Shown piece after piece: positions 9,588 to 44,185 of a stretch of DNA of 59,791 nucleotides. The notes under the pieces were generated by a model, which was not told where the DNA came from, did no database searches, and saw nothing but the letters and a program-made list of their open reading frames with translations. The translations under genes were made by a program, and so were the position numbers. Position 1 is the first letter of the stretch; each line of letters opens with the position of its first letter. This DNA is from an uncultured Eubacteriales bacterium (GTDB lineage Bacteria; Bacillota; Thermincolia; Thermincolales; CAZWUW01): the NCBI GenBank assembly GCA_964636895.1, contig CAZWUW010000005.1:1-59791 (forward strand), given 5' to 3'.

Positions 9588-11657
9588 TTAATTTTCCTTA
9601 TCCACATTACTCAAAAAACTATTAATTACGGCAATCTGTTTTGTTTGCAGACCGTATAACTGAAATACCAGCCGGTCAATTTCATTAGCTATATTCTGAT
9701 TAACCGGTCCTTTTTGCAACATTTCGGCAAGCATGGTTATTTCGGCGGCCAGTTCACGGTCCTTATGCTCCGGAAGAATCGGCAAGCGGGCCAGGTAAGT
9801 GCTGTTAAACCGGTAATAACCACCTTGCAGGTGCACGGGCCAGTAAAGAATGCGATAATAAAAATCCATTAACTTGGAATTTAAGACAGCACATAAATAA
9901 AACAAGTTATAACTCTCATATAACCCATATACTACATCCTCTTCCCTGATATAATATACCCTGCCCAGGGCACAACCTTCCTCATCCACGGCAGCTTCAA
10001 TTTTCTTAGCCAGGCCGGAAATCACCAGTTTCCGACCGGTAAAAGAATGCCACTGTTTTTTTGTTGAGGCACCGGCCGGTATAAACCCTTCTGCACTGGT
10101 AATAGATTATTTATCTATACAACCTGAGTTTAAGAACTTCCTGTAGTTTGTTTTATACTTATCAGCTAACCGGTCATATGACTGCGCATCAATAACTAAT
10201 TTCGCAAAGCCGGTCTTAGCAATGCCGCATAGAATTTTTTGCACCGGTAAACGCCCTGGTATACGGGAAATTGTTTCCAACACCGGCCAGGTGGCCTGAT
10301 TTATTTTTGGTGTAATTATCATATCATCGAGATTGTGATAAAAGCTTTCAGGGATAATACAACTATTTTTTACGTGAGCCAATTGCTGCAGGTTTGTTAC
10401 TTCTCTGACGGCAACCTGTCCAGCCATATTTTTCCTGCCTTTTTCTATCACCTGGATTACTGGATACACCGCAGCATCTGCAAACACCTTCATTTCCGAC
10501 AAATCAATGAGCTGATGCAAATTATGCCGGGTCAATAATTCCGACCGCAGTTTCCGTCCATAATCGGCAGCTAAATACTTGTTGGAGATAATAAAACACA
10601 GCCGGCCGCCGTCATTTAGGATTTCCAGACCCTTCTCGATAAAGGGAACAATTATATCATACTGTCCATCAACAGTCCGGTAATGCTGATTAATGTACTT
10701 TTTTAACGGCAAAGGCAGGAGTTTATTGGAAATGTATGGAGGATTGCCTATAACCAGGCTAAATCCGGGATTGTAGCCCTGAAAAACTTCAGCAAATTCC
10801 TGCCGCCACTTTATGGTCAGGGCATCACCCAGCCGAATGTTTTTCTGTAATAATTTTTTGCTCTCAACTGCTTCCGAATACGACCCATAACTCAGGGCTA
10901 AACCAATAATAGTCAGGTCTACAGCGCGGGCATCACTGTCCGTCCCGTACAAATGAGCGATGGCGCCGGCAGCAGGGTTAACGCCAATGCAGGCCGGGAG
11001 TTCTGCATAGAATGCTATCAGTTCACGCATCACAGCAGTTAAAAAGGCTGCACTGCCACAAGCCGGATCAAGCACCCGAAACTCTGCCAAATCCTCCAGT
11101 AGCGCTGTAATTTCGGACGATGATTCACGGCGTACAGCTTGCTGCATTTTTAGCCTGTACTCGCTTAGTATTTGGCCCATAGTGAGCTCAACCATATAAT
11201 TCACAATTTCCGGCGGGGTGTAATATGAACCCTGCTTTTTTCTGACCATTGCACCGGATCCTTTTTTTGTTACGGGAACCGGCCTATCCAGCGCGATTTC
11301 ATGCACTGCACCCAATAAGGCCGCCGGATTAGGCCGGTATCTTATCCCTTGCCGGATTTCCCGGACTACAGTATCAGGTATCGGCAAATCCCGGTGGCGG
11401 TCGGTGAACCATGGCAGCAGTTGATTTACCTCACCCATGTAACGGCCAATAATGTTTTGCCAAAGCCGGTCATTTTCACCTGCATCCCCGTCCGGCTTAG
11501 GATCCAGCACCTCCGCCAGGGATTCATTTATTTTACCAGCGATCAGTAAAAAAATCAAAACATCTTCCGCCAGATAATGATTATCCGCTGTCAGAGATTC
11601 AAATATAAGCTTATAGCTATTTTTTAAAAAATTCCGGGCTGCTCCGTCCATTAGCAT
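9588..11657 (-). pseudogene. N6-adenine DNA methyltransferase (Eco57I/TaqI-like) interrupted by one in-frame TAA at 10107-10109
   Basis: GSYYTP, DPACGS, IGNPPY; the 516-aa and 145-aa ORFs are in the same frame with an open 27-codon link; C-terminal part has TaqI-C-like LNSKL..FYY. Confidence 0.75.
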
Positions 11658-11697: not shown

Positions 11698-12879
11698 CTA
11701 TAATTCTAAACCAAATTGGTTTTTTGCATGGCTCACTTTAACTACTTTGGCCGGTTCTTTACAATGCCTGGATATATTCAGAAGCATCCCCACTGCAACA
11801 AGTTTGAAAAACAAAGAGGATCCGCCATAACTGATAAAAGGCAGCGTTATTCCCGTGACCGGCATGGAAGATGTGGCTACAGCAATGTTCATCATGGCTT
11901 CAACCAAAATCACGGAGGTCAGACCGCAGGCCATTAAACTGCCAAAAGTATCAGGACAATTTTTGGCTACCCGATAAGCTCTGGCGGCAAATAACACAAA
12001 AAGCACAATAACCATCAAACCACCCAAAAAACCTGCTTCTTCCGTCAAAATGCTAAAAATAAAATCAGTATGTTGTTCAGGCAAATACTTATATTTTTGC
12101 AGGCTTTGACCCAGTCCAACGCCCAAAAAACCTCCGGAGCCAATAGCAAAAAGAGACTGAATAATCTGGTGCCCGGAATCGCTTCTATCCGCCCAGGGGT
12201 CCCAAAATGCAGTGAACCTGCGCATTCTGTAAGAAGCCGATAAAACTGCCGTAACAGCAATCACAATGCCCAGTGATGCCAGGCCAAATAAATGACTTAG
12301 CCTGACACCGCCGGCAAATAACATAATAAAAGCTGTAATGGCTACAGCCATAGCTGTCCCCATGTCTCTTTGCAACAGGATCAGACCCCATATAATACCT
12401 ATTACCAATAATACCGGTACTAATCCATCGTTCAACAACTTCATCTTCTGCTGCTTTTGACTCATAATCCTGGCTAAAACAAGAACCAGCAACAGTTTAA
12501 CCATTTCCGAAGGTTGAAATTTGAATCCGCCAAAATCAATCCAACTACGCGCCCCGTTCACTGGTTCAGTGAATAAGACCACAATTAACAGGATTATTGC
12601 CACAAAAAAACCTGGCAGAGCCATATTTCTGAGTTTGTAATAATCTACCCGGGTAGCCACAATTAAACCGACTAATCCTACCCCGAGCCAAATCAAGTGC
12701 CGGTAAAAATAGAAATATATATTATCTGTACCCTTGGCAGCTGTAACTGCGGAACTCGAGCTCAATACCATAATGATACCGATACCAACCAGTAATAATA
12801 CGGGAATTAGCATATACCAGTCAACAGGACCTTTTGGAGGGTTGGATCTATTCCCGGATAAACGACGTTTCACTGCCAT
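11698..12879 (-). CDS. SEDS family peptidoglycan glycosyltransferase (FtsW/SpoVE/RodA)
   Basis: GARSWI, QPSE, DMGT, YLPEQHTDFIF, LPFISYGGSS. Confidence 0.92.
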   Translation of the reverse strand: MAVKRRLSGNRSNPPKGPVDWYMLIPVLLLVGIGIIMVLSSSSAVTAAKGTDNIYFYFYRHLIWLGVGLVGLIVATRVDYYKLRNMALPGFFVAIILLIVVLFTEPVNGARSWIDFGGFKFQPSEMVKLLLVLVLARIMSQKQQKMKLLNDGLVPVLLVIGIIWGLILLQRDMGTAMAVAITAFIMLFAGGVRLSHLFGLASLGIVIAVTAVLSASYRMRRFTAFWDPWADRSDSGHQIIQSLFAIGSGGFLGVGLGQSLQKYKYLPEQHTDFIFSILTEEAGFLGGLMVIVLFVLFAARAYRVAKNCPDTFGSLMACGLTSVILVEAMMNIAVATSSMPVTGITLPFISYGGSSLFFKLVAVGMLLNISRHCKEPAKVVKVSHAKNQFGLEL

Positions 12880-12979: not shown

Positions 12980-15900
12980 TTAAAATTTGTCTCCATGCCG
13001 GTGACAGCCAGCAGTAAAACAATTAGTGGGCCATTGTTTGCGGTTCCCCATGTGCCCTTGGCCATGACACCCGCTGCAAAAAAACCTGGCGTCAGCACCG
13101 GTCTTTTTGCTTATGCCGTCAAGATAATTCCAATTGTAAATGAACATGCCCGGCCTGGTTAAAAGGTTATCCGGCGAATTAATCGTGGTTTTCAGGTGAT
13201 AAACATTACCGGCACCGTGTTGTTCATGACAGTTTCGGCATTCCAGTGTACGGCCCTGCTGTACTTGAGCAGTTGCATAGCCGAAGCCGAATACCGGGTC
13301 CTGAATGCTTTTGTTCGGGTTCGGATTGCCTTCCCCGTGCATATCTGCTTTGTTGTCAAAACGCAAATAGAACTTTTCAGCCACATTAGTAAGGCTTGTA
13401 GTAGACTGGATAATTCCCGGAGCGTAAGGCATGGTTTTTTCAGGACCGGGAAAATTTCCGTCATGACATTTTACACAAAAGCTATTCACTGTTCCTTGCC
13501 AAATTTTGTTAGGGGCATCCGGATCGGTAAGTTTAGCTTCCCTGGTAGTGGCATGCGGGTTATGGCAATTACTGCAGGTAATGGCGGCTTGCGTCGCCAA
13601 CTGCGCTTCGGCCCGGACGTCATGGGAGGCCTGCGAGTCGGCAGATGCTGTAAATTGTTCGGCATTATGACAGCGAAAACATAGATTTTCCCGGTCATGG
13701 AGAAGCAGCCGGTCATTGGCAGAGACATGCGGCCGGTGGCAGTTAAGACATTGAATACCGGTGCCGGACGGTGGCTGTGGTAAAACCGTTTTATGAATAC
13801 CGGCCTCAAACAAGGAGCTGACAACCCCGGTCTTAAGCGTGGTATCCCGCCCATGACAACTGTAACAAACTGCATTGCCGCGGAAATTGGTAGTATGCTC
13901 ATAATTATTCATTAACAGCTTGGCATACCTACGGCTGCCATCCGGCTTTTGTTCCTCATAATCAAGCCTTGGTTCATGGCAGCCGGTACATTTTAAAGAC
14001 CCCGGGATATCCGGGTAAATGTTATGATTGGTGCGTGCATTTATCTGTTCCCTGATTAAATCCTTCTGACTGGCGGAACCATCATGACAGGTAAAACATA
14101 GTTTTTGTACCGTTGTTGCTTTAATCTGCAATTCACCAAAACCAGTATGGTTTTTATGGCAAATAGCGCAAACAAAAGTATTTTTACTGCCGTCAAGATG
14201 CGGAGCAGCAGCAAAGGGTTTACCTTCCGGTCGGGCCCAGATTTCGGCTGACTTTTTGCCTTCCACACCATTGACATCAACCGCAGCAACCCGGTAATAA
14301 TAGCTTTGGTAATTATATACCGCCGTATCAACATAGGTATTGATCATAAAATCAAGGGGCACCGGATTCATTAAACTGTATGGACCGCCACTGGTTTCAG
14401 TCCGATAGACGTTATACCCGCCAAAAGATAGATTATTAACAGTATGCCAGTTCAGGTCTACCTGGGTATCACTGTTATATACAGAGATACCTACCGGTGC
14501 ATTCGGAATACCGGTTATCCCCTTATTAGCATAATCTGTTACCGCCACCCCATTCCAATCTGTGTAAGTTAGCGGAAAATTATCGCTTAAAGGTGAAGCC
14601 CCGGCATTGTTAAAGGCAGCTACCTGATAAAAATATGTATTATTAGGCAGCAGCCCAGTATCAACATAGTACGTATCGCCCTGCCGGGATGTTTGACCAA
14701 CCGGCATAAAATATCCGGTGGGAAAACTGCTGCGATAAACATAGTAACCCACGGCCGTGTTCACCTGCTGCCAACTGATACCCACAGACGTAGCATCCAA
14801 GCCCCTAACCACAACACTTGCCGGGGCCGGCGGGGCATAAGTAAAATCCTCTACTGTTGAAAAAACCCACGTTACCGGCGCCGGTAGCCGGTTACCGCTG
14901 ATATCGGCTACACCAGTACCCACATATACCTTAACCTGGCTATTGGCGCTAAAATTAGCCGCCGGCAAAAAAGAAACAGTATTTGTATGCCGGTTATAGG
15001 TAACCTGCCCGGACAAAGCATGATCATATATTTCCCCGTATACTGTCTCACTAACGGAGATATTTGCGGTGTTCATTGCGAATGGCTCCATGGGTTCATT
15101 GAAGGTAACGGAAATAATATCGGCTATCCCATTAGCCGCCGACCTGTCGGCCGGAGTGAACCCCAGTATGGATGGCGGGCTTCGATCCTCTTCCGTGGTA
15201 AATGTCCACGTATAGCCGGTCAGGGAGTTGCCTGCAGGGTCCTGTATACCGTTTGTCAGATTAACGATATATGAAGTATTATATTTTAACGGCCGGGCTG
15301 GTTTAAAAAAAGCTTGATTCAGTTGATGGTCATAAGCTACAACGCCTTCAACCCGGTATATGCTGTTATAAGCTGCGTTATTAACATTTTCATGGATAGT
15401 AAAAGTCGCCTCGTTAAGCGTACTTTCATTCACCGGTTCGCTAAAAACGGCGTCAACTGATGCTGTAACCGCAACCCCCGTCGCCGCGTCAACCGGTGCA
15501 ACGGTTACTACCCGGGGCGGAGTAATGTCACTGTCAACATAATTAACGGTGATATAAAAACTGTCTGCCACCACCAGGATATCATCAGCCGCCCCGATCA
15601 CATTGCGCTGCATTTTTAACTGCAGCAGAGCTATATCTGTCCACATCCATGGCTGGCCGGTAGCCGGATTGACCTCAGCGGTATATGTAAAAGTAGTTAG
15701 TTCCGGTACCTGCTGGGCCGACGCTGCTCTGGCCGAAAACCAACTGACCCCGCTATTGGGACTAAAAAGCAGTTCCCAGGTATCCGGACTCATCCCCGCA
15801 AAATCCCCCTGAGCTGCCACAACATAAGAAAAAGTGATAGCATTGATGATATTCCCGGGCCGGTTTAAACTATACCCGGTAGCAGTTAGGTCATCAACAG

Positions 15901-16126
15901 CACCGGCGGCCAGAGTCGCCACCTTGTTATCCGGCGCACCGGTAACATTGCCGACGTTAGTGGTAACAGTACTCCCGTCAATATACCCGGCGATACCGGC
16001 GGGAGCATAGTCGGTCCACATGCCGGCATACACTTTAGATATAAAGAATGTATTAAAAAGGTAACCCGTGAATACAGCCAGCATTAATATATAAGTTGTT
16101 TTTCCCTTGATCTTTTTACAGTTCAT
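12980..16126 (-). CDS. secreted multiheme c-type cytochrome with Ig-like (Big_5) x2 and fibronectin-III x2 domains; 10 CxxCH + 1 CX4CH
   Basis: Signal peptide; PP.V..V.P...FSEP Big_5 repeats; GY.VYRS..Y.D...YYY.V.A FN3 repeats; heme motifs counted by eye in the C-terminal ~400 aa. Confidence 0.9.
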   Translation of the reverse strand: MNCKKIKGKTTYILMLAVFTGYLFNTFFISKVYAGMWTDYAPAGIAGYIDGSTVTTNVGNVTGAPDNKVATLAAGAVDDLTATGYSLNRPGNIINAITFSYVVAAQGDFAGMSPDTWELLFSPNSGVSWFSARAASAQQVPELTTFTYTAEVNPATGQPWMWTDIALLQLKMQRNVIGAADDILVVADSFYITVNYVDSDITPPRVVTVAPVDAATGVAVTASVDAVFSEPVNESTLNEATFTIHENVNNAAYNSIYRVEGVVAYDHQLNQAFFKPARPLKYNTSYIVNLTNGIQDPAGNSLTGYTWTFTTEEDRSPPSILGFTPADRSAANGIADIISVTFNEPMEPFAMNTANISVSETVYGEIYDHALSGQVTYNRHTNTVSFLPAANFSANSQVKVYVGTGVADISGNRLPAPVTWVFSTVEDFTYAPPAPASVVVRGLDATSVGISWQQVNTAVGYYVYRSSFPTGYFMPVGQTSRQGDTYYVDTGLLPNNTYFYQVAAFNNAGASPLSDNFPLTYTDWNGVAVTDYANKGITGIPNAPVGISVYNSDTQVDLNWHTVNNLSFGGYNVYRTETSGGPYSLMNPVPLDFMINTYVDTAVYNYQSYYYRVAAVDVNGVEGKKSAEIWARPEGKPFAAAPHLDGSKNTFVCAICHKNHTGFGELQIKATTVQKLCFTCHDGSASQKDLIREQINARTNHNIYPDIPGSLKCTGCHEPRLDYEEQKPDGSRRYAKLLMNNYEHTTNFRGNAVCYSCHGRDTTLKTGVVSSLFEAGIHKTVLPQPPSGTGIQCLNCHRPHVSANDRLLLHDRENLCFRCHNAEQFTASADSQASHDVRAEAQLATQAAITCSNCHNPHATTREAKLTDPDAPNKIWQGTVNSFCVKCHDGNFPGPEKTMPYAPGIIQSTTSLTNVAEKFYLRFDNKADMHGEGNPNPNKSIQDPVFGFGYATAQVQQGRTLECRNCHEQHGAGNVYHLKTTINSPDNLLTRPGMFIYNWNYLDGISKKTGADARFFCSGCHGQGHMGNRKQWPTNCFTAGCHRHGDKF

Positions 16127-16206
16127 CAGGTTTCCCCCTGTTAATCAAAAATATATTAAAAAAACTATTATAATTTCTATTTATTGTTATTTTGTTGAAA
16201 AAATGG

Positions 16207-16243
16207 GGGAAAAGGTGTTAAAATGAAGCTAACACCTTTTCCC
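16207..16243 (-). terminator. intrinsic terminator after hexaheme cytochrome
   Basis: GGGAAAAGGTGTTA/TAACACCTTTTCCC inverted repeat with downstream T-run. Confidence 0.75.
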
Positions 16244-16268
16244 ATCCTCAGTTAGCCTGGGTTAGAAA

Positions 16269-17879
16269 TTAAGGTCTGACTCTGTAGTTTAGGAGAGTCT
16301 CATTGATGAACGGAGTACTATCAGATTCAGAAATCTTATCGTGGCAAGCCTGACATACGACACGGTCATCGGCCTTCAGCAAGCTGTTATCCATCCCGCC
16401 GTGTTTGGTATCTATGTCTTTGTTTTTGGCAGAGCTGCCGTGGACATAGTGGCAGGACTGACAAATGACAGTACCGGACCTCATCGGGGTCGTCTGGAAG
16501 CCTTCAATGGAAATATCAAATTTGTTTGCCCAGGGACCGTTCCTGGCATTATCATACCACCATGGATAACCTGCAGTTCCGATAGCATGTCGGAAGGCCT
16601 TGGTGTATGACCCGGACGTAACTCTGGCCGTAGAGCCGTTCATACCATCAGTAGTAAGCAAGTTAAAGCCAACACCGCCGCCCATGTTCTGATAAAAGTC
16701 ATAGTGGCAGGTGCCGCAATAGGTATTCATGCCATAAACATAGTTCACCACTTCGGTTGCGCTATACTTATTGGCAAAAGTCATTACGGTTGGCCGGGCC
16801 ATAATCGGCCGGAACTCAGCACGTAATGTTTTGTTGGCCGGAACGATATACGTATTAAATCTGACAATTGTATAGATAGGTTTCTGAGTTGCCAAATCGG
16901 AGTTATTTGCTATAGTGTTAAGCAGTACCGGTTGACTAATAGGCTGAGTGGTGCCGGGGATAATCTTTTGGGCGCTGCCATCCGCATTTTTGTCTACCTC
17001 GTATACAATAGGCTTGGCAGCCCCTTGCTCAGTTTTCCAGAGTCCGCTAAAGGTAGGCCCGATGATGCCGGCTTTGGGGTCGGCCTTCATCCGCCATATC
17101 TTGCCAAACTCCCAACCGGCTTGTCCAACGGTAAATGTACCGTCTTTGAAAATATTAAGGACTGTACCAGCCGGTACCGGTTCCAGCACACCAAAGACAT
17201 CGTCGTTGGCAGCAATGGTAATAGGCGCGCTCTCGAGCAGCCGGTCATTGCCTCTTTGGTTAACAATACCGGCCCATGCCCCGGTGCCGGTGAAGGCGGT
17301 AGCGGTAACAGTCTGACCATGCGGGTTATGGCAGTTGATACAGTCAAGGTTCCAATTCTTTTCCGGTGCACCACCGGGAGCCGTATCGCTTTCCAAGCCG
17401 TCGCGCATGTGACTGGTGACACTAACAGCAGCAGCAGCTGCATCCGGCAATTTATAGGTTTCAAAACCGCCGGCAGTACTGTTCTTTGTGCCTGCAACTA
17501 ATCCTGCCTGGACGTTATAGTTACTGGAGGTACCGTCATGGCAGGCATAGCAGAGGAAATAATTGCTGGTCCTTCTGATCAGTTTGGCCCCTGCGGCATC
17601 GTGTGTCCTGTGACACTCGGCGCAGGCAAAGGTATTAGTGGTAAAATCACCGTGGGGGTTGTAGCCGACTTGTGCACCGGCCTGGCCCAAAGCATTAAGC
17701 CCTTTATCAATGGCATTATTGGTGACCCGGCCATTATAGGCCTTGTCATATACTGTCGCGGTCGGATCCTGGGCGCTGTAGTCGACATAAAAGTCGCTGG
17801 GGACAGTTGCCCAGGCGGCCGCAGCCATGGCAAACACCATTATGACTGCCATAGCCAGCATCAGAGAAAATCTTTTCAC
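16269..17879 (-). CDS. secreted hexaheme c-type cytochrome, OmcS/CwcA-like motif pattern
   Basis: GTG start after AGAGGAG, signal peptide (AWA), six CxxCH: CAECHRTH, CYACH, CINCHNPH, CGTCH, CQSCHYVH, CQACH. Confidence 0.85.
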   Translation of the reverse strand: MKRFSLMLAMAVIMVFAMAAAAWATVPSDFYVDYSAQDPTATVYDKAYNGRVTNNAIDKGLNALGQAGAQVGYNPHGDFTTNTFACAECHRTHDAAGAKLIRRTSNYFLCYACHDGTSSNYNVQAGLVAGTKNSTAGGFETYKLPDAAAAAVSVTSHMRDGLESDTAPGGAPEKNWNLDCINCHNPHGQTVTATAFTGTGAWAGIVNQRGNDRLLESAPITIAANDDVFGVLEPVPAGTVLNIFKDGTFTVGQAGWEFGKIWRMKADPKAGIIGPTFSGLWKTEQGAAKPIVYEVDKNADGSAQKIIPGTTQPISQPVLLNTIANNSDLATQKPIYTIVRFNTYIVPANKTLRAEFRPIMARPTVMTFANKYSATEVVNYVYGMNTYCGTCHYDFYQNMGGGVGFNLLTTDGMNGSTARVTSGSYTKAFRHAIGTAGYPWWYDNARNGPWANKFDISIEGFQTTPMRSGTVICQSCHYVHGSSAKNKDIDTKHGGMDNSLLKADDRVVCQACHDKISESDSTPFINETLLNYRVRP

Positions 17880-17966
17880 GCCATTCACTCCTCTGTTTTT
17901 TTTATTTGTTAACCCGCAGGCATTATTATTCACCTCCCCTCCACCCAATTTGGGTTATACAAATCA

Positions 17967-19001
17967 TCAAAAACCATACACCGCCACCCGGTTATTGCCT
18001 TTATCAGCAATATAAATCCTGCCCTGGTCATCAATAGCAATATCATTTGCCACATAAAACTGGTCGTTTTCCGGGCCGCTGCTACCAAAAGCAAAAAGCT
18101 GCTTATTTTCCTCCAAATCAAAGACAGTGATAGTGTTGAGGATAGGACTGGCCACATACAACACACCCTTTGGGTCAATACCCAACCCCCGGGGGTTAAT
18201 CAAGGTAGTTGAGTTATTAGTTTGTCCTTCTTCACCTGCTTTTGTTTCTCCGGCCAGCAATTTGATAAACTTGCCGTTTAAATCAAAAATCTGCACCCGG
18301 TTATTGCCGGAATCAGAAATATAGATGCTGTCATCTTTGACCAGGACAGCGTTCGGGTATACCAGCTGGCCGATTTTATTGCCTTTGGTGCCGCCGATTT
18401 TAAATAGCTGCTTTCCTTGCTTATCAAATACCAGCAGGCTGTGCAAACCAGCATCAGTAATATAAACACGGTCAGCGGCAACAAAAATATTGGTGGGTAC
18501 CCGAAAAATCCTTTTTTTCCCTTCACCGCCAAAATACTTTTTAAAATTACCGTTCAAATCAAAAACGGCGACTCTGCCGTTATGCATATCGGCAACATAT
18601 AAATCCGTATTATCAGCCGCCAGGCCATAGGGGTAATTAAGTTTTCCCGCCCCGGCGCCAAATTTGCCAAAAGTAAACAGCGGCCTGCCCTTCATGTCAA
18701 ACACCTGAATCCGGTGATTACCGGCATCACTGACATACAGCCTGTTATTTGCGATTTCAACTCCCATGGGAGTTTTCATTTTACCTTTGGCATCTTCACC
18801 GTAAACGGCAAACAAAAACTTCGGTGATATGGGGCCAATTAACGGGACTGAAACGTAATTCAAAGCTGTCAGCGGATTTAAGCCAAAATAAGCCAGCATG
18901 CCAAAACAGAGTACACCGAAAGCAATTATCCCGGCAATTATTTTTTTAAGGGTCGGTTTCTTTACAAACTTTTCCGCAGTTGCTGTATTAACTGTGTTCA
19001 A
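17967..19001 (-). CDS. membrane-anchored NHL-repeat six-bladed beta-propeller
   Basis: N-terminal TM; repeated P.G....LYV.D.GN.R.QVFD..G units. Confidence 0.9.
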   Translation of the reverse strand: MNTVNTATAEKFVKKPTLKKIIAGIIAFGVLCFGMLAYFGLNPLTALNYVSVPLIGPISPKFLFAVYGEDAKGKMKTPMGVEIANNRLYVSDAGNHRIQVFDMKGRPLFTFGKFGAGAGKLNYPYGLAADNTDLYVADMHNGRVAVFDLNGNFKKYFGGEGKKRIFRVPTNIFVAADRVYITDAGLHSLLVFDKQGKQLFKIGGTKGNKIGQLVYPNAVLVKDDSIYISDSGNNRVQIFDLNGKFIKLLAGETKAGEEGQTNNSTTLINPRGLGIDPKGVLYVASPILNTITVFDLEENKQLFAFGSSGPENDQFYVANDIAIDDQGRIYIADKGNNRVAVYGF

Positions 19002-19016
19002 CTGGCACTACCTCCT

Positions 19017-19655
19017 CTATTTCAACGCCGCTAATGCGGCCTTTGCTTCCTCAAAGCCCGGATCCCTGCGTACAGCCTGAAAATAGTAATCCTTGGCCAT
19101 TTTTTTATTACCCAAGCCCTCATAAGCTTTACCAAGAAAGTAACGTGATTCGTTAGATACCGGTTCCAGATTTAATGCTTTGTTCAAAAACACCTGCGCA
19201 TTTTTATAATCGTTTTTCTTTAAATACGCCACGCCGATATTTAAAAATGATTGATAATGCCTGGGCGATTTGACGGTGATTCTTTTTAAACCCTTAATGG
19301 CTTCGTCATATTTTTCGGTATCAATATACACCAAACTCAGGTTATACAAAGCAGAAAGGTTTTCTTTATCAATTTTAAGAGCCTCTTTGAATGCTTCTTC
19401 GGCATCATTATATTGTTTTAACCGGTGATAACCGGCACCCAGTTCAATAAACTTTTCGGCAGTGCGGTATCCCTGGGCCACCTGTTTTTCCAGATCTTTT
19501 ACCTCCCTGGCCACCAGTGGCGACCGGTCATACTGCAGGCGCAACAAAACCAAGCCCAGGGCCATGTTTACAACAATCACTATTAACACGGTTAATAAGA
19601 TAACAGTTACCGCTTTTTTCATTGGCACTTGCTGAATTTCACCCGTTTTAAGCAT
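19017..19655 (-). CDS. membrane-anchored tetratricopeptide repeat protein
   Basis: N-terminal TM; four TPR-like repeats (LG..Y......A...F..AL..DP). Confidence 0.9.
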   Translation of the reverse strand: MLKTGEIQQVPMKKAVTVILLTVLIVIVVNMALGLVLLRLQYDRSPLVAREVKDLEKQVAQGYRTAEKFIELGAGYHRLKQYNDAEEAFKEALKIDKENLSALYNLSLVYIDTEKYDEAIKGLKRITVKSPRHYQSFLNIGVAYLKKNDYKNAQVFLNKALNLEPVSNESRYFLGKAYEGLGNKKMAKDYYFQAVRRDPGFEEAKAALAALK

Positions 19656-19931
19656 TTTTAGTCACCTCTCTCATTTGATTAATTGTGCGCAAATCTATCC
19701 GGAACAGATTATTCATCCCAGACCCCCTTCCAGTATTTATATATACCTCTACATCAAATATTTTACAGGAAGGATTAACAATAATTTGTCATAATAAAAC
19801 ACCGGAAGTAAAATATTTTTCTTCTTTTTTAAACATTTGTACTTTTTTTCACCACTGTATTCGACAAAACGACGAATATTAAAGGTGAAGGTGTCAGAAT
19901 TTTCTGATTTACGAGCATGGTAGTTGGCCCT

Positions 19932-19972
19932 AATCAAAAACCCTGAGACAAATGTCCCAGGGTTTTTGATTA
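19932..19972 (-). terminator. intrinsic terminator after 725-aa cytochrome
   Basis: AATCAAAAACCCTG...CAGGGTTTTTGATT inverted repeat. Confidence 0.7.
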
Positions 19973-22147
19973 TTTATACAAGATTTCAAAACGTCCGCCG
20001 GCCGGCAATGGAGTTGTCGCGGTATGCGTCTCACCTTTATACCATAGGACGGTACAGATCCGGTTAACTTTGGTAAAAGTCATACTAAAGTAATTTTTTG
20101 TCGTATCAGGTACAGGTGAAGACATTGTCCAGCCAAATTGGTTTAACTGCTCCTGGTAATATGCCGCTGCTGTAACAGTACTAATATCATTTCGCCTGCT
20201 GGAAATAACGATTTTGCCTCCCCCGGCGCTATACTCAACCGGCATCCATGTTTCACCACCCCAAATGGCGGCGGGTAAAGGCACTGTCCAGTCAAATCCG
20301 CTATGCAGCGGAATATCCAAAGGGATTTTTTCCACAAAATTAACATTGTGGGCCTGACCGTGACAAGCGCCACAGGAGGTGTTCAACGACTTGATGGCAT
20401 TTATAATTTCCGGACGGGTATTGCTGTGGCAGGTGGCACAATTATATTTACTTTGGGTAACAGGGTCCGTATATTTCTCATGTTCTCTGGTCAGGCTGCC
20501 GGCGTGACAGTCCCCACCGCAGGAATTGGCCACTGTATGTTTGCCGGCAATGTCGTGACCCTTGGTCCAGTTGGCAATGTAGCCGTCTCTGGCATGACAG
20601 GAGAAGCAGTCATTTTTCCTGAAATTAGTAATTACTTCAGCTCCATGTACTGAATGGCAACGGAGACAGGCGTTAGCATCACCGTCGTGACAGGATTGGC
20701 ACCTATCTACCCGGTGGGTTTTTATAGTATGGCAGCCCAGACATTCCTGCGAGGTCAAAGACCCCTGCATTTCGAGATTTGTCGTCACATAGAAAGACCA
20801 GTTGGCTTTTCCGGATACTCCATTGACATCATAGACCGTCATAGCCACGTTATGCATTATTTCATTTGTCAGATTGCTGCCCGGCATGTAGTAAACATTC
20901 CCGCTTGTGGTGCCGGTGGCGGTGTAGATGAAGGCAGGTATTTTTATGCCGTTGACAATTAGTTCAATTCTAGCCGGATCAATAGCCGCACTGGCGCTGA
21001 TATTGGCTGAAATACCAGGGCGCTGATTTGTCACATAGCTTTTCGGTGCCGGGGTCAGATTCATAATAAGCGGCGCGACCGCCTGGGCATCAATATTAAA
21101 AGTGGTATTGCTCGTGCTGCCGGTACCAAGCTTATCCTTAATGCTGATTTCCAGCGGATACGGGCCAAAACCCAGCCCATTGGCCTGATATGTAATCTTG
21201 CCTTTAGTCAGATCCTGCACCTGAACAACGTTCCCAGCACCATCAGATGCCCAAGTAGTATTAAAGGTAATGGTGGGCTGGACTACCTGAGCACCGATTT
21301 TCATGCTCAGTGAATTGGCGTCCAACTCGTCAGTATCGCTAACATTAACCTGAATCAGCGGATTGTTAACGGTTATTATGCTTCCGTCGGCCGGCGAGAG
21401 ATTGCTGAAAACCGGTGCCGTTACAGTGACGTTAAACCTCCAGGCCGCAATGACAACATGGCCTCCCATATCTTTGGCTTCCAGCGTGACATTATGACTG
21501 CCAGAGGTTAAGGGTATAGCAGGCGTATAGCTCACTTCACCGGTAGCACTGTTAAAGTTATGGGCAACCCTTGTACTGTTAACTGTCAAAATAATTGTAG
21601 CCGGATCGATGCTGCCATTGGGATCCTTAACAATTGCAGAAATCGTAGGACTATTTGTCAATACACCGCTATTGTCTGCCGGGGTTAAGTTTGCTATCAC
21701 CGGTGGCACCGCCACAGTAAATGACCATTGCGTAACAGACACATTATTTGCGTCATCATATACCTGAACCTGAACGGTTTGATTGCCGTCACTAAGATTA
21801 GCGGCCTGATATGAGATATCAGCCTCATTTTTATTAACTGCTTCCATTAATGCGCCAGTATCCGGGTCCATCACCCATGTTTTAGGTTGAGTCAAGTTGG
21901 CTGTTTTTATTTGGTTATTAAGATAAAACTTGAGACTGGCACCGTTAATGCCGTCAGTATCTGAGGCATGCACTTTTACTAACGGGTTAGCTGTTGTTAC
22001 AGTCGCTAAGTTAGCGGGACTTAGCGCCGAATAAGTCGGACCGGTAGTGGAAGCATTGGCTGGTACTCCAACTAACAGCATTAACAGGAGCACCAAACCA
22101 ATTAACATTACCCATTTCCTGCCTGCTTTATTCTGTTGTCTAATCAA
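19970..22147 (-). CDS. secreted multiheme cytochrome with four Ig-like repeats; 6 CxxCH + 1 CX3CH
   Basis: Signal peptide (ANA); four P.....L.PA....V....P.I repeats; CLGCH, CQSCH, CLRCH, CFSCH, CGGDCH, CATCH, CGACH. Confidence 0.85.
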   Translation of the reverse strand: MIRQQNKAGRKWVMLIGLVLLLMLLVGVPANASTTGPTYSALSPANLATVTTANPLVKVHASDTDGINGASLKFYLNNQIKTANLTQPKTWVMDPDTGALMEAVNKNEADISYQAANLSDGNQTVQVQVYDDANNVSVTQWSFTVAVPPVIANLTPADNSGVLTNSPTISAIVKDPNGSIDPATIILTVNSTRVAHNFNSATGEVSYTPAIPLTSGSHNVTLEAKDMGGHVVIAAWRFNVTVTAPVFSNLSPADGSIITVNNPLIQVNVSDTDELDANSLSMKIGAQVVQPTITFNTTWASDGAGNVVQVQDLTKGKITYQANGLGFGPYPLEISIKDKLGTGSTSNTTFNIDAQAVAPLIMNLTPAPKSYVTNQRPGISANISASAAIDPARIELIVNGIKIPAFIYTATGTTSGNVYYMPGSNLTNEIMHNVAMTVYDVNGVSGKANWSFYVTTNLEMQGSLTSQECLGCHTIKTHRVDRCQSCHDGDANACLRCHSVHGAEVITNFRKNDCFSCHARDGYIANWTKGHDIAGKHTVANSCGGDCHAGSLTREHEKYTDPVTQSKYNCATCHSNTRPEIINAIKSLNTSCGACHGQAHNVNFVEKIPLDIPLHSGFDWTVPLPAAIWGGETWMPVEYSAGGGKIVISSRRNDISTVTAAAYYQEQLNQFGWTMSSPVPDTTKNYFSMTFTKVNRICTVLWYKGETHTATTPLPAGGRFEILYK

Positions 22148-22432
22148 GTCTCCTCCCCCTTTCTGTACGTATTCTTAAATAATTCACCTCCCCTTTTGTG
22201 GTATTGGAAAAAATAACTTTTTTATATATTAAGTGTATTATATTTACTTTAAAAAATATGTTGAAACCTGTGTTTAAAATCCAAAAAAATTATCAGTAAA
22301 GAATTTACTTTATGTTTATTAAACCGACATATTTTGTATACATATTAAAATAAAATTAAGTACGGTGCCATTACGCACGCCACCAACAAAGCACATTTGG
22401 TTGTAGTTGCAGCGATCATCCCAGGAAATAAA

Positions 22433-22509: not shown

Positions 22510-23124
22510 TTATTTCGCCATTCCGGCCATTGCATAAACCACATTACTCGCCACCACCGCATAGTCTTCGGTAGGCAAATAGTTCGCGGCCGAAGCATCA
22601 AACAAAATATTACCGGTGGCCGGAAATTCATCGTCCGCCGCCCACAGCACATAAGTAATGGCCACTCTGGGCAATACCTGAATAGTTACACTGACATCCC
22701 CCAAAACCTGCTTAACTCCGCCCAGCTTTGCCGCAACTTGTAAAAAAAGCTCATGGTTTTGGCCAAAAACTTTTATCATCGGTTCAATCGCCCGCCGGTA
22801 AAAAGGGTCAATGTAAATAGCACCATCCGGCAGTTCTTTGAAAGAAATATACTTGTCCTGAACCGGTGCGCCGTTAGCAGTACAAAGGTAGTGCAGCAAC
22901 AGGGCCTGCTCCTTTAGCGGTACCTCACCCTCCTTCGCAGCATAACCGACAACAATCCCCGGATAAGTAACGGTGTAATCCTGACCCAAATATTTTAAGG
23001 TGATCACACCCAGGTCAGGATTCCAATGCGCTCCGCTGTTACGAGCCATTTCCGCCGGCTCTTTGGCTTTCATTTTGTTGCAGGCATATTCATAAGTAAC
23101 TTCCAGGTTATAATTCTTGGACAC
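22510..23124 (-). CDS. DUF3786 domain protein (paralog 2)
   Basis: LLLHYL, ISFKELPDG, LPRV, W.ADDEFP.TGNILFD...YLPTED. Confidence 0.85.
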   Translation of the reverse strand: MSKNYNLEVTYEYACNKMKAKEPAEMARNSGAHWNPDLGVITLKYLGQDYTVTYPGIVVGYAAKEGEVPLKEQALLLHYLCTANGAPVQDKYISFKELPDGAIYIDPFYRRAIEPMIKVFGQNHELFLQVAAKLGGVKQVLGDVSVTIQVLPRVAITYVLWAADDEFPATGNILFDASAANYLPTEDYAVVASNVVYAMAGMAK

Positions 23125-24059: not shown

Positions 24060-24494
24060 CTAGCGGCACTTCGTACAATATCCAAAAAATTTTAGCTGGT
24101 GATCGACAACTTCAAAACCGCTGCGTTTGGCAATGGCCTCCTCCAATGAGTCCAGCAAGTCATCGGCAAACTCAGTAACCATGCCACAGCGGGTACAAAT
24201 CAAATGATGATGATGATGAATCTCATTTTGGGTAAACTCATACCGGCTGCGACCATCACCAAAATCCATACGCTGCAGCACTTCCATGTCTGCCAGTAAA
24301 TCCAGGGTCCGGTATACCGTAGCCAGACCAATGTCCGGATGTTTCTTTTTTAAAATTGAGTAAACATCCTCCGCACTTAAATGTTTTCCCTCATTATTCA
24401 TAAACACTTTGAGAATTTTTTGCCGCTGTGGCGTCAATTTGCATTCTTTGTCGTGGAATTTTTGGCGGATGTTATCCATCGTGTGCCGCATCAA
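24060..24494 (-). CDS. fur: ferric uptake regulator
   Basis: TPQR, HLSAEDVY, GLATVYRTL, HHHHLIC..CG, GYC..C. Confidence 0.9.
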   Translation of the reverse strand: MMRHTMDNIRQKFHDKECKLTPQRQKILKVFMNNEGKHLSAEDVYSILKKKHPDIGLATVYRTLDLLADMEVLQRMDFGDGRSRYEFTQNEIHHHHHLICTRCGMVTEFADDLLDSLEEAIAKRSGFEVVDHQLKFFGYCTKCR

Positions 24495-24523
24495 GCCACC
24501 ACCTTAAATATAACTTCCACCTA

Positions 24524-24553
24524 ATTATATTTGATTTGTGAAATTGTTGTCAA
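24524..24553 (-). promoter_or_regulatory. sigma-A promoter of fur
   Basis: TTGACA-N18-TATAAT. Confidence 0.7.
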
Positions 24554-24573
24554 TATCTACAACTCCTGCTTTT

Positions 24574-24765
24574 TCAACCGCATCCTGCTTTTTTAGCCGT
24601 ATCCCGCTTTTTTCCGCCACAACGCTTGCAGCCGCCGCTGCAGCCTGTTTTCAGCAGCAGGGTGAAACAACGCGGACAACGGATAGTTCGGGGGTCATAA
24701 ATACTATTTTGACACGTGGGGCAAAGCATAATTTTTTCCGTATTATCACAGCATTTATCCGGCAT
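24574..24765 (-). CDS. small Cys-rich protein downstream of feoB
   Basis: 63 aa, CC, CxxC, CxxC, CxxxCxxC; overlaps the feoB stop. Confidence 0.7.
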   Translation of the reverse strand: MPDKCCDNTEKIMLCPTCQNSIYDPRTIRCPRCFTLLLKTGCSGGCKRCGGKKRDTAKKAGCG

Positions 24766-26722
24766 AAGGCTTACCGCCGCCGGTCAGACTTTTGGTTGTG
24801 CCGGAAATTTTGGCAATCACCATAAGAAACACCAGCACACCAACAACTACGCCGAGAACGCCGGTTGCAGAACCCAGCAGATTATATAACTGATTTATTA
24901 TCCCACCAATCAGAAAAGCCAGCCCAAAGATAAGCGGCCACATAATCAGCGCCTCACGTCGCCCGCGCTCCTTAAAAATAATCAAGGTAGAGGCGATGCA
25001 CGGTACAAACAGAGTAATTGTAATTAATCCTACCACCACCTGAATACTGGTTAAATCCATCGAACTGAGGCCTGCCGCGCCAAAATCCCTGCGTACAAAG
25101 CCCATAATAAACACGGTGGCCGCTTCTTTAGGCAAACCCAACCATCCCGCAGTAAAGGGTTTCAGCAGGTTCTGCGCCCCCTGCAAAAGCCCGGTGACCT
25201 GTAAAATGCCGATTAACAGCGCACCGCCGGCAAATAACGGAGTTGCCTCCACCAGGAAGTTATAAGATTTTGTCATAGTTTTCTTTAAAACGTTTTCGAC
25301 GCGCGGCCAGCGTAAAGGCGGCAAATCAATGAGCAGATGGGTTGACTCACCCGGTAATATTTTGTTTAGCAATGTACCGGCCAACGCCAATACTGTAAAA
25401 ATTACTAAACCGTATAAAGCGAAATAAGTAGCGCTGACTTTGGTGAGCAGACCAGCAATAACCGCCATTTGGGCCGAACAAGGGATAGCCAGCCCCAGCA
25501 GAAATACCGCTATCCGCCGTTCCCGCACCGAACCCAGTAACCTGGTAACAATAGTAGCCAGGGTCACGCATCCGAAACCCAGAATCAATGGAATCACTGC
25601 CCTGCCGTTCAGGCCGATGCTTGACATAGCCCGGTCTGCCAGCGTGGCAATGCGCGGCAGGTAACCGGAATCCTCGAAAGCTGAAAGCGCAAGATAAAAA
25701 CCAATTACCAACGGCAGCAATAAACCTAAAATATATGTAACCGTCATCGTTAACACACCAAATTCGCCAATTAAAATTGTCCCCAGGGCAGTTTCTTCAG
25801 GAAAATAAGGATTCACCAATCCACGGATAAACGGCTCGTACTGGCCCTGCATAATGACCTCCTCAGTCAGGCCCACCACATCACCGGCAATAAAAACACC
25901 AATAAATTCATACATGGCAAATAAAAATAAAGCAAGGATGGGAATTCCCGTGACCGGCTGAATCATCCACCGGCCCAATTTGGTGCCAAAACTTGCACCC
26001 TGATTGCTTTCCGTAACCACGTGCCCCACAATATCATTTACCCTGGCCCGGCGCTGCAGATAAATCTCTTCCCGTTCATCGCCAGGTTGTATTCCGTGCC
26101 GCTCCGCAACTATCGGGTCACCCTCCAAAATTAACAGGGCTTCCGCCTGGCTGCCTACCCGGTCATACAGCAAGTGCAGCTTTTTATGCAGTACCGGGTC
26201 AATATGACCATGTCGGGCACTGCTTATTGCCTCCTGCAGTTCCTTGAGCCCCTTTTTTTGCACGGCCACCGTGGGCACTACCGGTACCCCCAGTAAATCA
26301 CTGAAAAGGTCAACATCTATTTTGCGGCCCTGTTTTTCGGCCTCATCCAGCATGTTAAGCGCCACCAGTACCGGTACGCCCGTATCAATAATCTGTTGGG
26401 TCAGAAACAGATCCCGCTCCAGGTGGACAGCATCAACAATATTAATTACCACGTCAGCACCCAGGATAATATCCCGGGCAATTTTCTCTTCGTCATTAAA
26501 TGATGAAATCCCATATACTCCTGGTGTGTCAATAACCACATCCTGACCGTACTTGCCGTAGGATATCTCTAGTGTAGTACCCGGATAGTTGGAAACATCA
26601 ACATATAATCCGGTCAGGGCGTTAAAAAAAACTGATTTACCCACATTTGGGTTGCCGGCCAATACTATTTTTTTAGCATCCGGCGGAATATTAAATTTTA
26701 TGCCTATGTCATGACAGTGCAT
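24755..26722 (-). CDS. feoB: ferrous iron transporter B
   Basis: GNPNVGKS, NYPGTT, DTPG, NMLD, EDSGYL.R, IPCSAQ; ATG 26722 after GGAGG. Confidence 0.95.
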   Translation of the reverse strand: MHCHDIGIKFNIPPDAKKIVLAGNPNVGKSVFFNALTGLYVDVSNYPGTTLEISYGKYGQDVVIDTPGVYGISSFNDEEKIARDIILGADVVINIVDAVHLERDLFLTQQIIDTGVPVLVALNMLDEAEKQGRKIDVDLFSDLLGVPVVPTVAVQKKGLKELQEAISSARHGHIDPVLHKKLHLLYDRVGSQAEALLILEGDPIVAERHGIQPGDEREEIYLQRRARVNDIVGHVVTESNQGASFGTKLGRWMIQPVTGIPILALFLFAMYEFIGVFIAGDVVGLTEEVIMQGQYEPFIRGLVNPYFPEETALGTILIGEFGVLTMTVTYILGLLLPLVIGFYLALSAFEDSGYLPRIATLADRAMSSIGLNGRAVIPLILGFGCVTLATIVTRLLGSVRERRIAVFLLGLAIPCSAQMAVIAGLLTKVSATYFALYGLVIFTVLALAGTLLNKILPGESTHLLIDLPPLRWPRVENVLKKTMTKSYNFLVEATPLFAGGALLIGILQVTGLLQGAQNLLKPFTAGWLGLPKEAATVFIMGFVRRDFGAAGLSSMDLTSIQVVVGLITITLFVPCIASTLIIFKERGRREALIMWPLIFGLAFLIGGIINQLYNLLGSATGVLGVVVGVLVFLMVIAKISGTTKSLTGGGKPYAG

Positions 26723-26773
26723 ACGCTCTGCCTCCGTTCCTTTTGAGCTAATAAATACATTCACAAACTGCCG

Positions 26774-32768: not shown

Positions 32769-33015
32769 TATAGTTTTCCCTCCTGTACTGTTTTTCTTAT
32801 TTTAACCAAACAGCAGGGAAAATAACCATTACCAAAATCCACCTGATGACAAGCCTGTCCTTATCAAGTATAATAGCCCTTAGCTTCTTACAAAATAAAC
32901 GCGCATTTCTGCTGCACCGCATAAGAAATGGTAAGATTTACTTGCAGGTATAAGTAGAGAAATGTCGTAATTTACGTAATAAGACAAGTTTATATTAAGT
33001 TTCAGTCACCTGTAT

Positions 33016-33122
33016 ATCGCTTAATTCATTTGAAACGGGGGAACCAAGTTCCTGGGGTGAAGCCATCTAATGGCCGGGCTATTCTTCATGTCCGAACCCG
33101 TCAGCTAACCTCGTAAGCGTTC
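33016..33122 (+). ncRNA. cyclic di-AMP (ydaO/yuaA) riboswitch
   Basis: CGGGGGAACC...GGGGTGAA...CCGAACCCGTCAGCTAACCTCGTAAGCG consensus segments. Confidence 0.9.
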
Positions 33123-33187
33123 TGAAGGGAGGTGTTTTTTGCTTTCGTGCCGCAGTTAATAAATATATGTCGAAAGGAGCACCAAAA

Positions 33188-43859: not shown

Positions 43860-44024
43860 TATATCCATCCCTTGTCTGCAATATAACTTTCCCGGCACAA
43901 TTCCCCGGCTTAAATGAAAAACAAAACACCCCCGGCCTTTGCCGAGGGATAATAAGCTAATTTCGCCGGTAATGTACGTCAGCGAAAAAACACCTCTACC
44001 CTTTCTCGCGAAGGACTCGATGGT

Positions 44025-44185
44025 CACCTTCGGGCCGGTATCCTGGCTCCCGGATCGCTGTTTGCTGCACTCCTTCCCCGGCTTGACGGCCGAGTGGCTT
44101 GCGTACAGTAACTCCCCGGTTACAGTGGCGGAGACCGCTCAGGATTTTAACCTGATTCCCAGTAAAACATCCGAAGGTATATGAA
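44025..44185 (-). ncRNA. cobalamin riboswitch
   Basis: GGGAATCAGGTTAAAATCCTG, CCGCCACTGTAA, GCCACT..GGGAAG, GAGCCAGGATACCGGCC; upstream of cobU. Confidence 0.92.

Follow-up and report, generated by a model that had tools for sequence, protein, structure and literature searches.

An Ig-decorated, OmcS-like hexaheme cytochrome with TPR and NHL partner genes in an uncultured bacterium of the Thermincolales: a candidate extracytoplasmic electron-transfer module

Introduction

How electrons pass through the thick wall of Gram-positive bacteria is known mostly from models, and the start and anchoring of cytochrome wires are largely open. The question is raised by five neighbouring genes, here called A to E, in a 59,791-nucleotide stretch of DNA (the window) from an uncultured Eubacteriales bacterium (GTDB lineage Bacteria; Bacillota; Thermincolia; Thermincolales; CAZWUW01; GenBank assembly GCA_964636895.1, contig CAZWUW010000005.1). 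The window is contig C5 of a 2.89-Mb genome in 143 contigs, estimated to be 92.9% complete. A, D and E encode cytochromes with seven, six and eleven hemes, B a TPR protein and C an NHL propeller. D is a rare member of the CwcA/OmcS class, a paralogue decorated with an Ig-like domain; the TPR/NHL pair is conserved, A and E are large and stalked, and the locus has no input cytochromes of its own. A reading made from the sequence alone had proposed a trans-wall conduit of a monoderm cell, with D as a polymerising wire, B and C as its membrane-anchored assembly pair and A and E as stalked heme heads. The analysis presented here leans, at a probability of about 0.55, towards another account, in which the cluster is an inserted, divergent paralogue of a Bacillota-wide extracytoplasmic electron-transfer module with B, C and D as its core.

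Two parts of this picture are known already (published work being cited here from excerpts of the papers): the wire hypothesis, put forward for CwcA in 2021, and the presence of NHL and TPR genes in Gram-positive multiheme clusters, described in 2023. Faustino et al. (2021) modelled the Thermincola wall hexaheme CwcA, which they found to be insoluble, on OmcS at 18% identity and proposed that 4–16 copies stack to cross the peptidoglycan, with trans ligation of heme 5 (PMC7911101). Its gene belongs to the ImdcA...CwcA cluster (TherJR_1117-1122 / Tfer_0070-0075), which begins with a membrane decaheme and ends with the wall hexaheme (PMC7911101). Several multiheme clusters of Dethiobacter alkaliphilus include NHL and TPR genes, which the authors suggest may help in cytochrome secretion or orientation; the passages concerned deal with co-occurrence only, and not with a fixed TPR-NHL-hexaheme order, a likeness to OmcS or a complex between NHL protein and hexaheme (PMC10376724, 2023). 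NHL propellers have also been found in multiheme clusters of Desulfovibrio ferrophilus (PMC5815863), and "Bacillary hexahemes" of unassigned function were described by Gavrilov et al. (PMC7829351).

A limited literature search, outside which lay the supplements of PMC7911101 and PMC10376724, returned no text on a fixed TPR-NHL-hexaheme order across the Bacillota and, within the same scope, none on an NHL-hexaheme complex. These supplements (a CwcA-OmcS alignment and cluster tables, respectively) may already contain part of the present results. No paper containing both "Neobacillus" and "multiheme" was returned, a search that did not cover the hyphenated form "multi-heme". What the conserved triad offers is two named partners for an OmcS-like hexaheme, one an NHL propeller anchored in the membrane and the other a TPR protein, together with a predicted contact loop that can be mutated. 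The gain from the window alone is smaller, as it holds one divergent paralogue and the wire hypothesis has been published.

Relationship of hexaheme D to OmcS and CwcA

Taken together, family profiles and a structural model point to D as a Sec-exported six-heme homologue of OmcS of Geobacter sulfurreducens and of the Thermincola wall class CwcA. A profile of 79 D-like hexahemes with D as its first sequence (A2) matched the OmcS chain 6ef8_A at an expectation value (E) of 2.5e-26 over OmcS residues 8-406, with all six CxxCH heme motifs aligned, and a profile of 103 NHL-linked cassette hexahemes of the Bacillota, D included (A7), reached OmcS at 3.3e-16. When the AlphaFold2 (AF2) model of D was compared with 48,161 chains by VIA-align, OmcS ranked first (Z 12.1, root-mean-square deviation 4.3 over 236 residues), the alignment spanning residues 96-539 of the model and 3-407 of the chain; MtrA was second at Z 6.2. 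The two proteins thus share six hemes in the same order, a profile and fold likeness and a histidine behind heme 1. They differ in their cellular setting, Geobacter being a diderm with outer-membrane secretion and the host of the window a monoderm.

Twenty-one columns are invariant in all 103 hexahemes. Outside the heme motifs, all 103 sequences have H99, H116 and H210, and at least 90% have H180, H454 and H503, so that D appears to have twelve conserved histidines and six bis-His hemes. The counterpart of H116 in OmcS is the His two residues past the first CxxCH (...CHTMH), which we take to be His16, the inter-subunit ligand in the filament. One heme of OmcS is ligated by a His from the next subunit (PMC12307469; PMC7911101).

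The same features bear on whether the module might serve some other redox task, such as reducing humics or soluble compounds of sulfur or nitrogen at the membrane surface, or taking up electrons and oxidising Fe(II). In Dethiobacter, related Gram-positive multiheme proteins have been connected with the metabolism of sulfur and Fe(II) (PMC10376724), the family profile weakly matches octaheme nitrite reductases (3e-6), and Fur and FeoB adjoin the cluster. However, six apparently bis-His hemes leave no obvious open catalytic site, the conduit protein OmcS is the best structural and profile match, far above the reductases, and the length of the Ig/FN3 stalks in A and E fits a need for reach better than catalysis. 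A catalytic or uptake role of this kind is decidedly unlikely in our estimate.

D differs from OmcS in carrying an Ig-like beta-sandwich between hemes 3 and 4. In VIA-align comparisons the insert resembled Ig-like domains of the S-layer protein Sap, phage tail proteins and pilins (Z 3-5). The true start of the protein is probably an internal GTG before VKRFSL. A search of 1.84 billion representatives returned 666 proteins at E <=0.001 and just 2 at <=1e-30; these two full-length relatives, P0001 and P0002, are 97% and 54% identical to D. The remaining matches cover two three-heme modules, at residues 95-215 and 375-540. Such module-level matches are present in 14 of 40 relatives, whose hexahemes are 24-30% identical to D.

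Some relatives' cassettes have a 12-heme protein of 812-851 residues after the TPR and NHL genes (L027, L029, L034, L036). Among BLASTP matches of D these proteins rank best (27-30% identity, E down to 1.7e-33); each resembles a tandem of two hexaheme units.

D resembles CwcA in having six hemes, in its likeness to OmcS and in its monoderm host, but it is not the CwcA orthologue. That role is filled in the same genome by the hexaheme of a cluster on contig C25, which is 44% identical to the hexaheme of locus L161, and D is a separate, divergent paralogue with an Ig-like insert. The C25 cluster is co-linear (44-65% identity) with one in another genome of the order (G009) that reads c10(355 aa)-c12-c17-TPR-NHL-c6(357 aa), where c is followed by the number of hemes. 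The apo mass of ImdcA is 41.7 kDa (PMC7911101). Because c10 and c6 are separated by four genes, the same number as Tfer_0070 and Tfer_0075, and because heme counts and the size of ImdcA fit, the published CwcA gene is very probably preceded by TPR and NHL genes too. The cluster of the window departs from that of CwcA in lacking c10 and c12 cytochromes of the NapC/NirT type and in having A upstream and the large E downstream instead.

Conservation of the TPR-NHL-hexaheme cassette

In the window, TPR and NHL genes lie directly upstream of the hexaheme gene and are co-oriented with it. By its recurrence across genomes this arrangement is, at the level of sequence, a conserved cassette. The genome that includes the window has seven co-oriented TPR-NHL-cytochrome triads, on contigs C5, C23, C16, C25 and C1 and, twice, on C12. 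All 14 of its NHL-family open reading frames (ORFs) found by phmmer adjoin an ORF with at least five hemes, 12 of them directly upstream and co-oriented. Its plain ORF list holds 42 ORFs with at least three CxxCH motifs, 363 motifs altogether.

Two sets of loci extend this observation beyond the genome. In 40 loci from 13 related genomes, picked solely on likeness to the first module of D, a same-strand NHL gene lies directly upstream of 46 of 55 D-like genes and a TPR-NHL pair upstream of 32, while two lack an upstream gene inside the locus. A second set of 79 named loci was obtained by scanning species-representative genomes with orthologues of the C23 hexaheme (A5); NHL is directly upstream in 73, the order TPR-NHL-c6 is found in 69, c12-TPR-NHL-c6 in 67 and c10-c12-TPR-NHL-c6 in 50, and 58 carry an additional multiheme gene downstream. 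The two counts are not independent, since some genomes contribute to both. The titles of the named loci include Thermincola, Dethiobacter (c12-TPR-NHL-c6 in L085 and L115), Desulfosporosinus, Desulfitobacteriaceae, Neobacillus, Mesobacillus, Bacillus spp., Priestia megaterium, Anaerobacillus and Evansella. That TPR and NHL genes would accompany such cytochromes had been anticipated by the sequence-only reading, for which their absence would have been fatal, and the association is strongly conserved in both sets. Because the operon occurs in loci titled as culturable bacilli, genetic tests may be possible in hosts easier than Thermincola.

The hexaheme profile was matched at <=1e-20 by 35 of 401 sampled genomes of the window's phylum (GTDB), that of the window included, and by 12 of 13 searched genomes of its order. 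Records titled Thermincola are the nearest named relatives of a conserved hexaheme paralogue, at 60-68% identity.

The usual operon reads c10-c12(NapC/NirT)-TPR-NHL-c6-c8. Its products measure about 460 residues for c10, about 390 for the NapC/NirT-like c12, 500-700 for c6 and 600-800 for c8. This six-gene form is seen in many records titled Neobacillus, Mesobacillus, Bacillus sp. and Priestia megaterium S2 (L072-L144, e.g. L079, L092, L125). The cluster of the window can be regarded as a rearranged version of this operon, because E and A are homologous to its downstream cytochromes and the core is kept, with the NapC/NirT inputs missing.

Propellers are paired with cytochromes in other systems as well. 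In Desulfuromonadia the smallest OmcE clusters comprise the nanowire subunit, a pair of multiheme cytochromes and a pair of beta-propeller lipoproteins (PMC13712944), and thus resemble the cassette in joining a propeller to a cytochrome of the wire-subunit type. OmcE is, however, a tetraheme of another fold family, and its chain 7tfs_A aligns with the D model at a Z of only 3.6. For omcS itself a flanking NHL gene was not confirmed, GSU2505 being listed as hypothetical (PMC10599522).

Predicted complex between propeller C and hexaheme D

C is predicted to form a six-bladed propeller at about residues 70-344. NHL matches fall in four stretches of the protein, which also matches DUF5128 (PF17170; 6.3e-18), and an N-terminal hydrophobic segment is present in 101 of 103 homologues. 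Columns conserved in at least 90% of the 103 sequences, three of them invariant, hold Gly, Pro, Phe, Tyr, Val, Asp, Asn and Arg. An enzymatic NHL propeller was set aside, on weak evidence: C has only three His, and its conserved columns resemble structural repeat motifs.

The prediction of complex structures had been called for when the locus was first read, and was run here on C and D, using residues 49-559 of D and the ectodomain of C (residues 50-344) with an alignment of 103 rows for each. The result supports a binding of D by the propeller, in so far as a model can. The complex scored 0.64 (0.66, 0.64 and 0.62 in separate runs), and the best of three controls 0.00. Among 80 solved complexes 58 came up to the mark of 0.64, and among 110 mismatched pairs 2 did; these figures hold only roughly because our own alignments were used. 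The runs had at least 76% of contacts in common, with a predicted local distance difference test (pLDDT) of at least 83 for the partner. Between 60 and 70 of the 107-119 contacts had an expected error below 8 Å, and they were spread over all six blades on one face of the propeller. The segment of D placed on this face follows heme 2 (residues 131-175, CH-DGTSSNYNV...), and there is a further contact at residue 111, inside the first heme motif. Conservation at the D interface is 0.48, against 0.35 elsewhere in the protein (permutation p ~0.025). We know of no solved complex between an NHL propeller and OmcS.

The position of the predicted interface is of interest for the wire proposal of the sequence-only reading, according to which D polymerises into a long OmcS-type nanowire, B and C are a dedicated machine for its assembly and anchoring, and A and E are tip or surface heads. 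The model puts C at the heme-1/2 end of D, a position that would be in keeping with a base or nucleator; D is a homologue of OmcS, and all 103 aligned sequences keep the His after heme 1; CwcA is insoluble and was modelled as a polymer (PMC7911101); and a strong terminator directly follows D, as is common for abundant structural subunits. Yet seven cassettes, each with its own TPR and NHL genes, are not needed for one machine and one wire. The His pattern is family-wide and extends to fused forms of 800-1500 residues that can hardly all be wire subunits, and D has a bulky Ig-like insert that OmcS does not. We regard this version of the wire as improbable. Of the earlier interpretation, the conduit, the likeness to OmcS and the conserved partners have thus gained support, and the wire and the assembly role have not.

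A more general form of the idea is that the NHL propeller and the TPR protein are a monoderm machine that nucleates, caps and tethers OmcS-type stacks, each cassette rooting its own wall-spanning wire. The propeller would hold the first subunit at its heme-1/2 end, by the conserved CH-DGTxSxY loop. This is a tentative and rather doubtful proposal, but its consequences would be wide: c10-c12-TPR-NHL-c6-c8 would make OmcS-type wires common in Gram-positive bacteria, the soil bacilli Neobacillus, Mesobacillus and Priestia among them, and the Ig-decorated D would be a specialised wire with A and E as its own heads.

TPR protein B and the possibility of a maturation role

B has an extracytoplasmic TPR domain at about residues 66-211. 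In the genome of the window its family comprises ten phmmer matches, B included, of which eight are cassette-type paralogues of 211-232 residues.

Both B and its paralogue on C23 weakly match the CcmH/CycH TPR domain (2.1e-6 and 2.4e-6; 28 bits against a cut-off of 42). This raises the possibility that B and C are maturation or quality-control factors only, B being a CcmI-like TPR holdase and C a propeller chaperone that shields the end of D until the cytochrome is folded. Cytochrome maturation System II (ResB/CcsA) is not known to include a dedicated TPR chaperone. The one-to-one pairing with each hexaheme also fits client-specific chaperones. The companion genes of OmcS in Geobacter (osc genes) provide a parallel, OscH being reported to act in folding, OscEFG in secretion and OscD in morphology (PMC13194489, citing Shen et al. 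2025). Nevertheless, the TPR match lies below the Pfam cut-off in a group of families that cross-match freely, and the predicted contacts over all six blades look, in so far as a model can show it, like those of a stable complex. A purely maturational role is judged unlikely.

A working model for the module

In the account preferred here, that of an inserted paralogue of a conserved electron-transfer module, the cytochromes would be exported and would then receive heme through ResB and CcsA, whose genes lie outside the window. With its propeller face C would dock D by way of the conserved loop behind heme 2, at the heme-1/2 end, so that D is tethered to the outer face of the membrane, and B would assist or stabilise the C-D pair. 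From there D would relay electrons outward through the wall, either by head-to-tail stacking as in OmcS (given about 40% of the weight) or, for the rest, as a single docked relay. A and E, which are separately transcribed and carry their heme blocks on Ig/FN3 stalks, would be distal partners in the wall or at the surface. Electron input would come from the NapC/NirT-type c10 and c12 membrane cytochromes of paralogous clusters, since the window has no cytochrome of this type. The flow could run either way, outward to reduce Fe(III) or an anode or inward as electron uptake. The presence of seven cassettes, each with its own TPR and NHL genes, fits cognate partners better than one general assembly machine.

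The genome supplies several of the parts that this account places outside the window. As the sequence-only reading had stated, no quinol oxidoreductase or ccs genes are to be seen in the window; contig C12 has the genes for ResB and CcsA within a cytochrome island, and c10 and c12 of the C23 and C25 clusters match NapC/NirT at the N-terminus. A search for Omp85 gave no match in the 92.9%-complete genome but was positive in 7 of 14 named genomes used as controls. Its closest named relatives belong to Thermincola. Both points agree with the monoderm trans-wall setting first proposed. The locus resembles the MtrCAB/Pcc systems in having multiheme chains across an envelope layer, and the heme block of E matches the MtrA chain. 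A porin-cytochrome (Mtr/Pcc) reading was rejected as the cluster has no porin gene and the genome no detected Omp85.

A number of results weigh against the preferred account. The AF2 model of D, which was built without hemes, is of middling quality (pLDDT 67.3; predicted template modelling score, pTM, 0.68), and in the complex runs the pLDDT of D itself fell to 46-55. With Foldseek the model gave nothing at E <=0.001, OmcS being fourth at E 0.51. A search of the PDB with the sequence of D alone gave nothing relevant, and one with a profile built from the three sequences of the D clade returned nothing with E <=1, so the link to OmcS rests on the wider family and on the model; in sequence terms, homology to OmcS was found at the level of the family and not by D alone or by its clade. 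At the C interface conservation is not higher than elsewhere in the propeller (0.60 versus 0.57, p ~0.22). A search of 40 relatives for an orthologue of D was negative (best E 6.1e-21). Because of this, and with two full-length relatives only, this copy of D could be a young or marginal paralogue, as judged from sequence searches. By Pfam no NapC/NirT cytochrome lies upstream in the cluster, the gene upstream of B being A. As had been noted at the outset, there is no wall anchor of the usual kinds: Pfam finds no SLH match and there is no LPxTG in A, D or E. Finally, the sequencing runs that contain the stretch or part of it (7 rows from 3 studies) are all of DNA, with no RNA run listed.

SLH domains are otherwise frequent in this genome, with 47 matches in other proteins and none on contig C5. 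A contig scan with the D-clade profile (A1) matched 42 pattern stretches, among which there was no relative.

The island on C12 (about 4400-42000; L022, L023) extends over some 38 kb and holds two TPR-NHL-hexaheme triads, three NHL-cytochrome pairs with cytochromes of 1081-2017 residues, an SLH protein of 952 residues and a ResB/CcsA pair confirmed by Pfam. A second pair of ORFs in it (465 and 276 residues) is sized like ResB/CcsA, the match being on size alone.

Organization and insertion of the gene cluster

The ORF list places all five genes, co-oriented and exported or membrane-anchored as first described, exactly at 12980-22147 on the minus strand (Table 1). Pfam and motif counts likewise agree with the gene make-up given at that time (7-heme Ig cytochrome, TPR, NHL, hexaheme, 11-heme Big_5/FN3 cytochrome), and the 24 heme motifs then counted consist of 22 canonical CxxCH and two variants. 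In all six frames of the window (119,578 codons) 22 of 23 CxxCH motifs fall within A, D and E; by motif count B and C have none. A, D and E begin with signal-like segments, with cleavage sites read by eye as ANA|S, AWA|T and VYA|G, and B and C each have a single N-terminal hydrophobic anchor.

Table 1. Features of the cytochrome cluster and of its surroundings in the 59,791-nucleotide window.
Feature	Coordinates	Strand	Basis
A, secreted 7-heme cytochrome, 725 aa	19970-22147	-	Signal peptide, Big_13, cytochrome c3 (Pfam), motif count
A C-terminal domain, Mog1/PsbP/DcrB-like alpha/beta fold	19973-20356	-	AF2 pLDDT 84, pTM 0.81
B, TPR protein with one N-terminal membrane anchor, 212 aa	19017-19655	-	Pfam TPR; first gene of B-C-D unit
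C, NHL six-bladed beta-propeller with one N-terminal anchor, 344 aa	17967-19001	-	PF01436 NHL 5.3e-29
D, secreted OmcS/CwcA-like hexaheme cytochrome, 559 aa, 6 CxxCH	16269-17948	-	Pfam Paired_CXXCH_1, motif count
D segment after heme 2, predicted to lie on propeller face	17424-17558	-	Complex-model interface
D Ig-like beta-sandwich, aa 241-384	16797-17228	-	Strands in AF2 model
E, secreted 11-heme cytochrome, 1048 aa	12980-16126	-	Signal peptide, Big_5 (1.4e-36), fn3, Paired_CXXCH_1 (Pfam)
Terminator-like hairpin and U-run directly 3' of A	19934-19969	-	-25.3 kcal/mol, z -6.1, 0/200 shuffles as stable
Terminator-like hairpin (15-bp stem) and U-run directly 3' of D	16207-16243	-	-22.6 kcal/mol, z -5.8, 0/200 shuffles as stable
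Sigma-70-like promoter match 5' of A, TCAACA-16-TATAAT	22237-22264	-	10/12, consensus match only
DUF3786 gene	22510-23124		
FtsW gene	11698-12879		
Fur and FeoB genes	24060-26764	-	
Eco57I/N6-methylase-like gene	9588-11657	-	
Second DUF3786-like ORF, 205 aa	631-1248	-	
c-di-AMP riboswitch, complete	33008-33136	+	102.8 bits
Cobalamin riboswitch, complete	44016-44189	-	91 bits

The intergenic gaps are 314 nucleotides between A and B, 15 between B and C, 18 between C and D and 142 between D and E. Strong terminators after A and after D therefore divide the cluster into the units A, B-C-D and E. Sigma-70-like sites in the region numbered 29, against 21.3 expected, and an Rfam scan gave no match inside the cluster.

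The cluster had been described as inserted among housekeeping genes, and comparison within the order agrees. In three of three same-order genomes outside the family of the window (G002, G008 and G009) FeoB, Fur, a TauE-like gene and DUF3786 are followed directly by FtsW, a methylase and MinC, with a gap between DUF3786 and FtsW of about 100 nucleotides in G002 and about 680 and 825 in the other two (ORF coordinates). In the window the 9.2-kb cluster sits exactly between DUF3786 and FtsW.

That this site is empty in three genomes of the order is a point for regarding this copy as a redundant, recently acquired paralogue with little or no function, as are the failure to find an orthologue in 40 relatives and the absence from the cluster of the usual operon's c10/c12 input genes. 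The five frames are intact, however, with signal peptides, heme motifs and terminators in place. The D clade also recurs, at full length and 54% identity, in a second lineage (P0002), and the stretch was found in runs of three studies (presence only). An idle copy is, on this evidence, very unlikely indeed.

In another genome of the window's family (G001; L153, 10990-12945) DUF3786 is followed by a NapC-like multiheme gene (421 residues) and a TPR gene (224 residues), after which the contig ends. The DUF3786/FtsW site may take up cytochrome cassettes in this family and may be a hotspot.

Stalked cytochromes A and E

A consists of Ig-like (Big_13) repeats at about residues 33-460, a heme block at about 465-600 and a C-terminal domain of 128 residues. 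Its seven hemes comprise six CxxCH motifs and a CGGDCH, which is aligned with an ordinary CxxCH of paralogues and can therefore be taken as a real heme site. Homologues of A sit downstream of the hexaheme gene in loci titled Thermincola and Neobacillus. The C-terminal domain was matched by VIA-align to PA1624 (Z 9.0) and DcrB (Z 6.8) and by Foldseek best to DcrB (E 0.02), and an Atlas search with it gave no usable match. A fold of the Mog1/PsbP/DcrB type gives no explanation of how A might be anchored in the wall.

This C-terminal domain, 126-130 residues long and ending in ...GYRIEILYK, is common to A, five other multiheme proteins of the genome and one protein titled Thermincola (L157-L160; L020, 10547-10924; L068, 9260-9637).

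E begins with a domain of no known family (about residues 35-195), which is followed by a stalk of two Big_5 and two fn3-like domains (about 200-630) and a heme block (about 640-1048). Ten CxxCH motifs and a CFTAGCH make up its eleven hemes, and the block matches the MtrA chain 6r2q_A at 7.3e-7. E is homologous to the Big_5-bearing c8/c9 gene that follows the hexaheme gene in other Bacillota (e.g. L072, 8.6e-35), but it is larger than the usual c8/c9 and is set apart from D by a terminator.

Other features of the window

The genes for Fur and FeoB (ferrous iron uptake) lie about 2 kb from the cluster and belong to the conserved backbone of the order, not to the insertion. The Eco57I/N6-methylase-like gene is present as two ORFs (145 and 516 residues), both of which match a single ORF of about 680-695 residues in three relatives, and it may be broken. 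The second DUF3786-like ORF is 30-37% identical to the DUF3786 proteins of relatives. Two complete riboswitches, for c-di-AMP and cobalamin, lie elsewhere in the window (Table 1).

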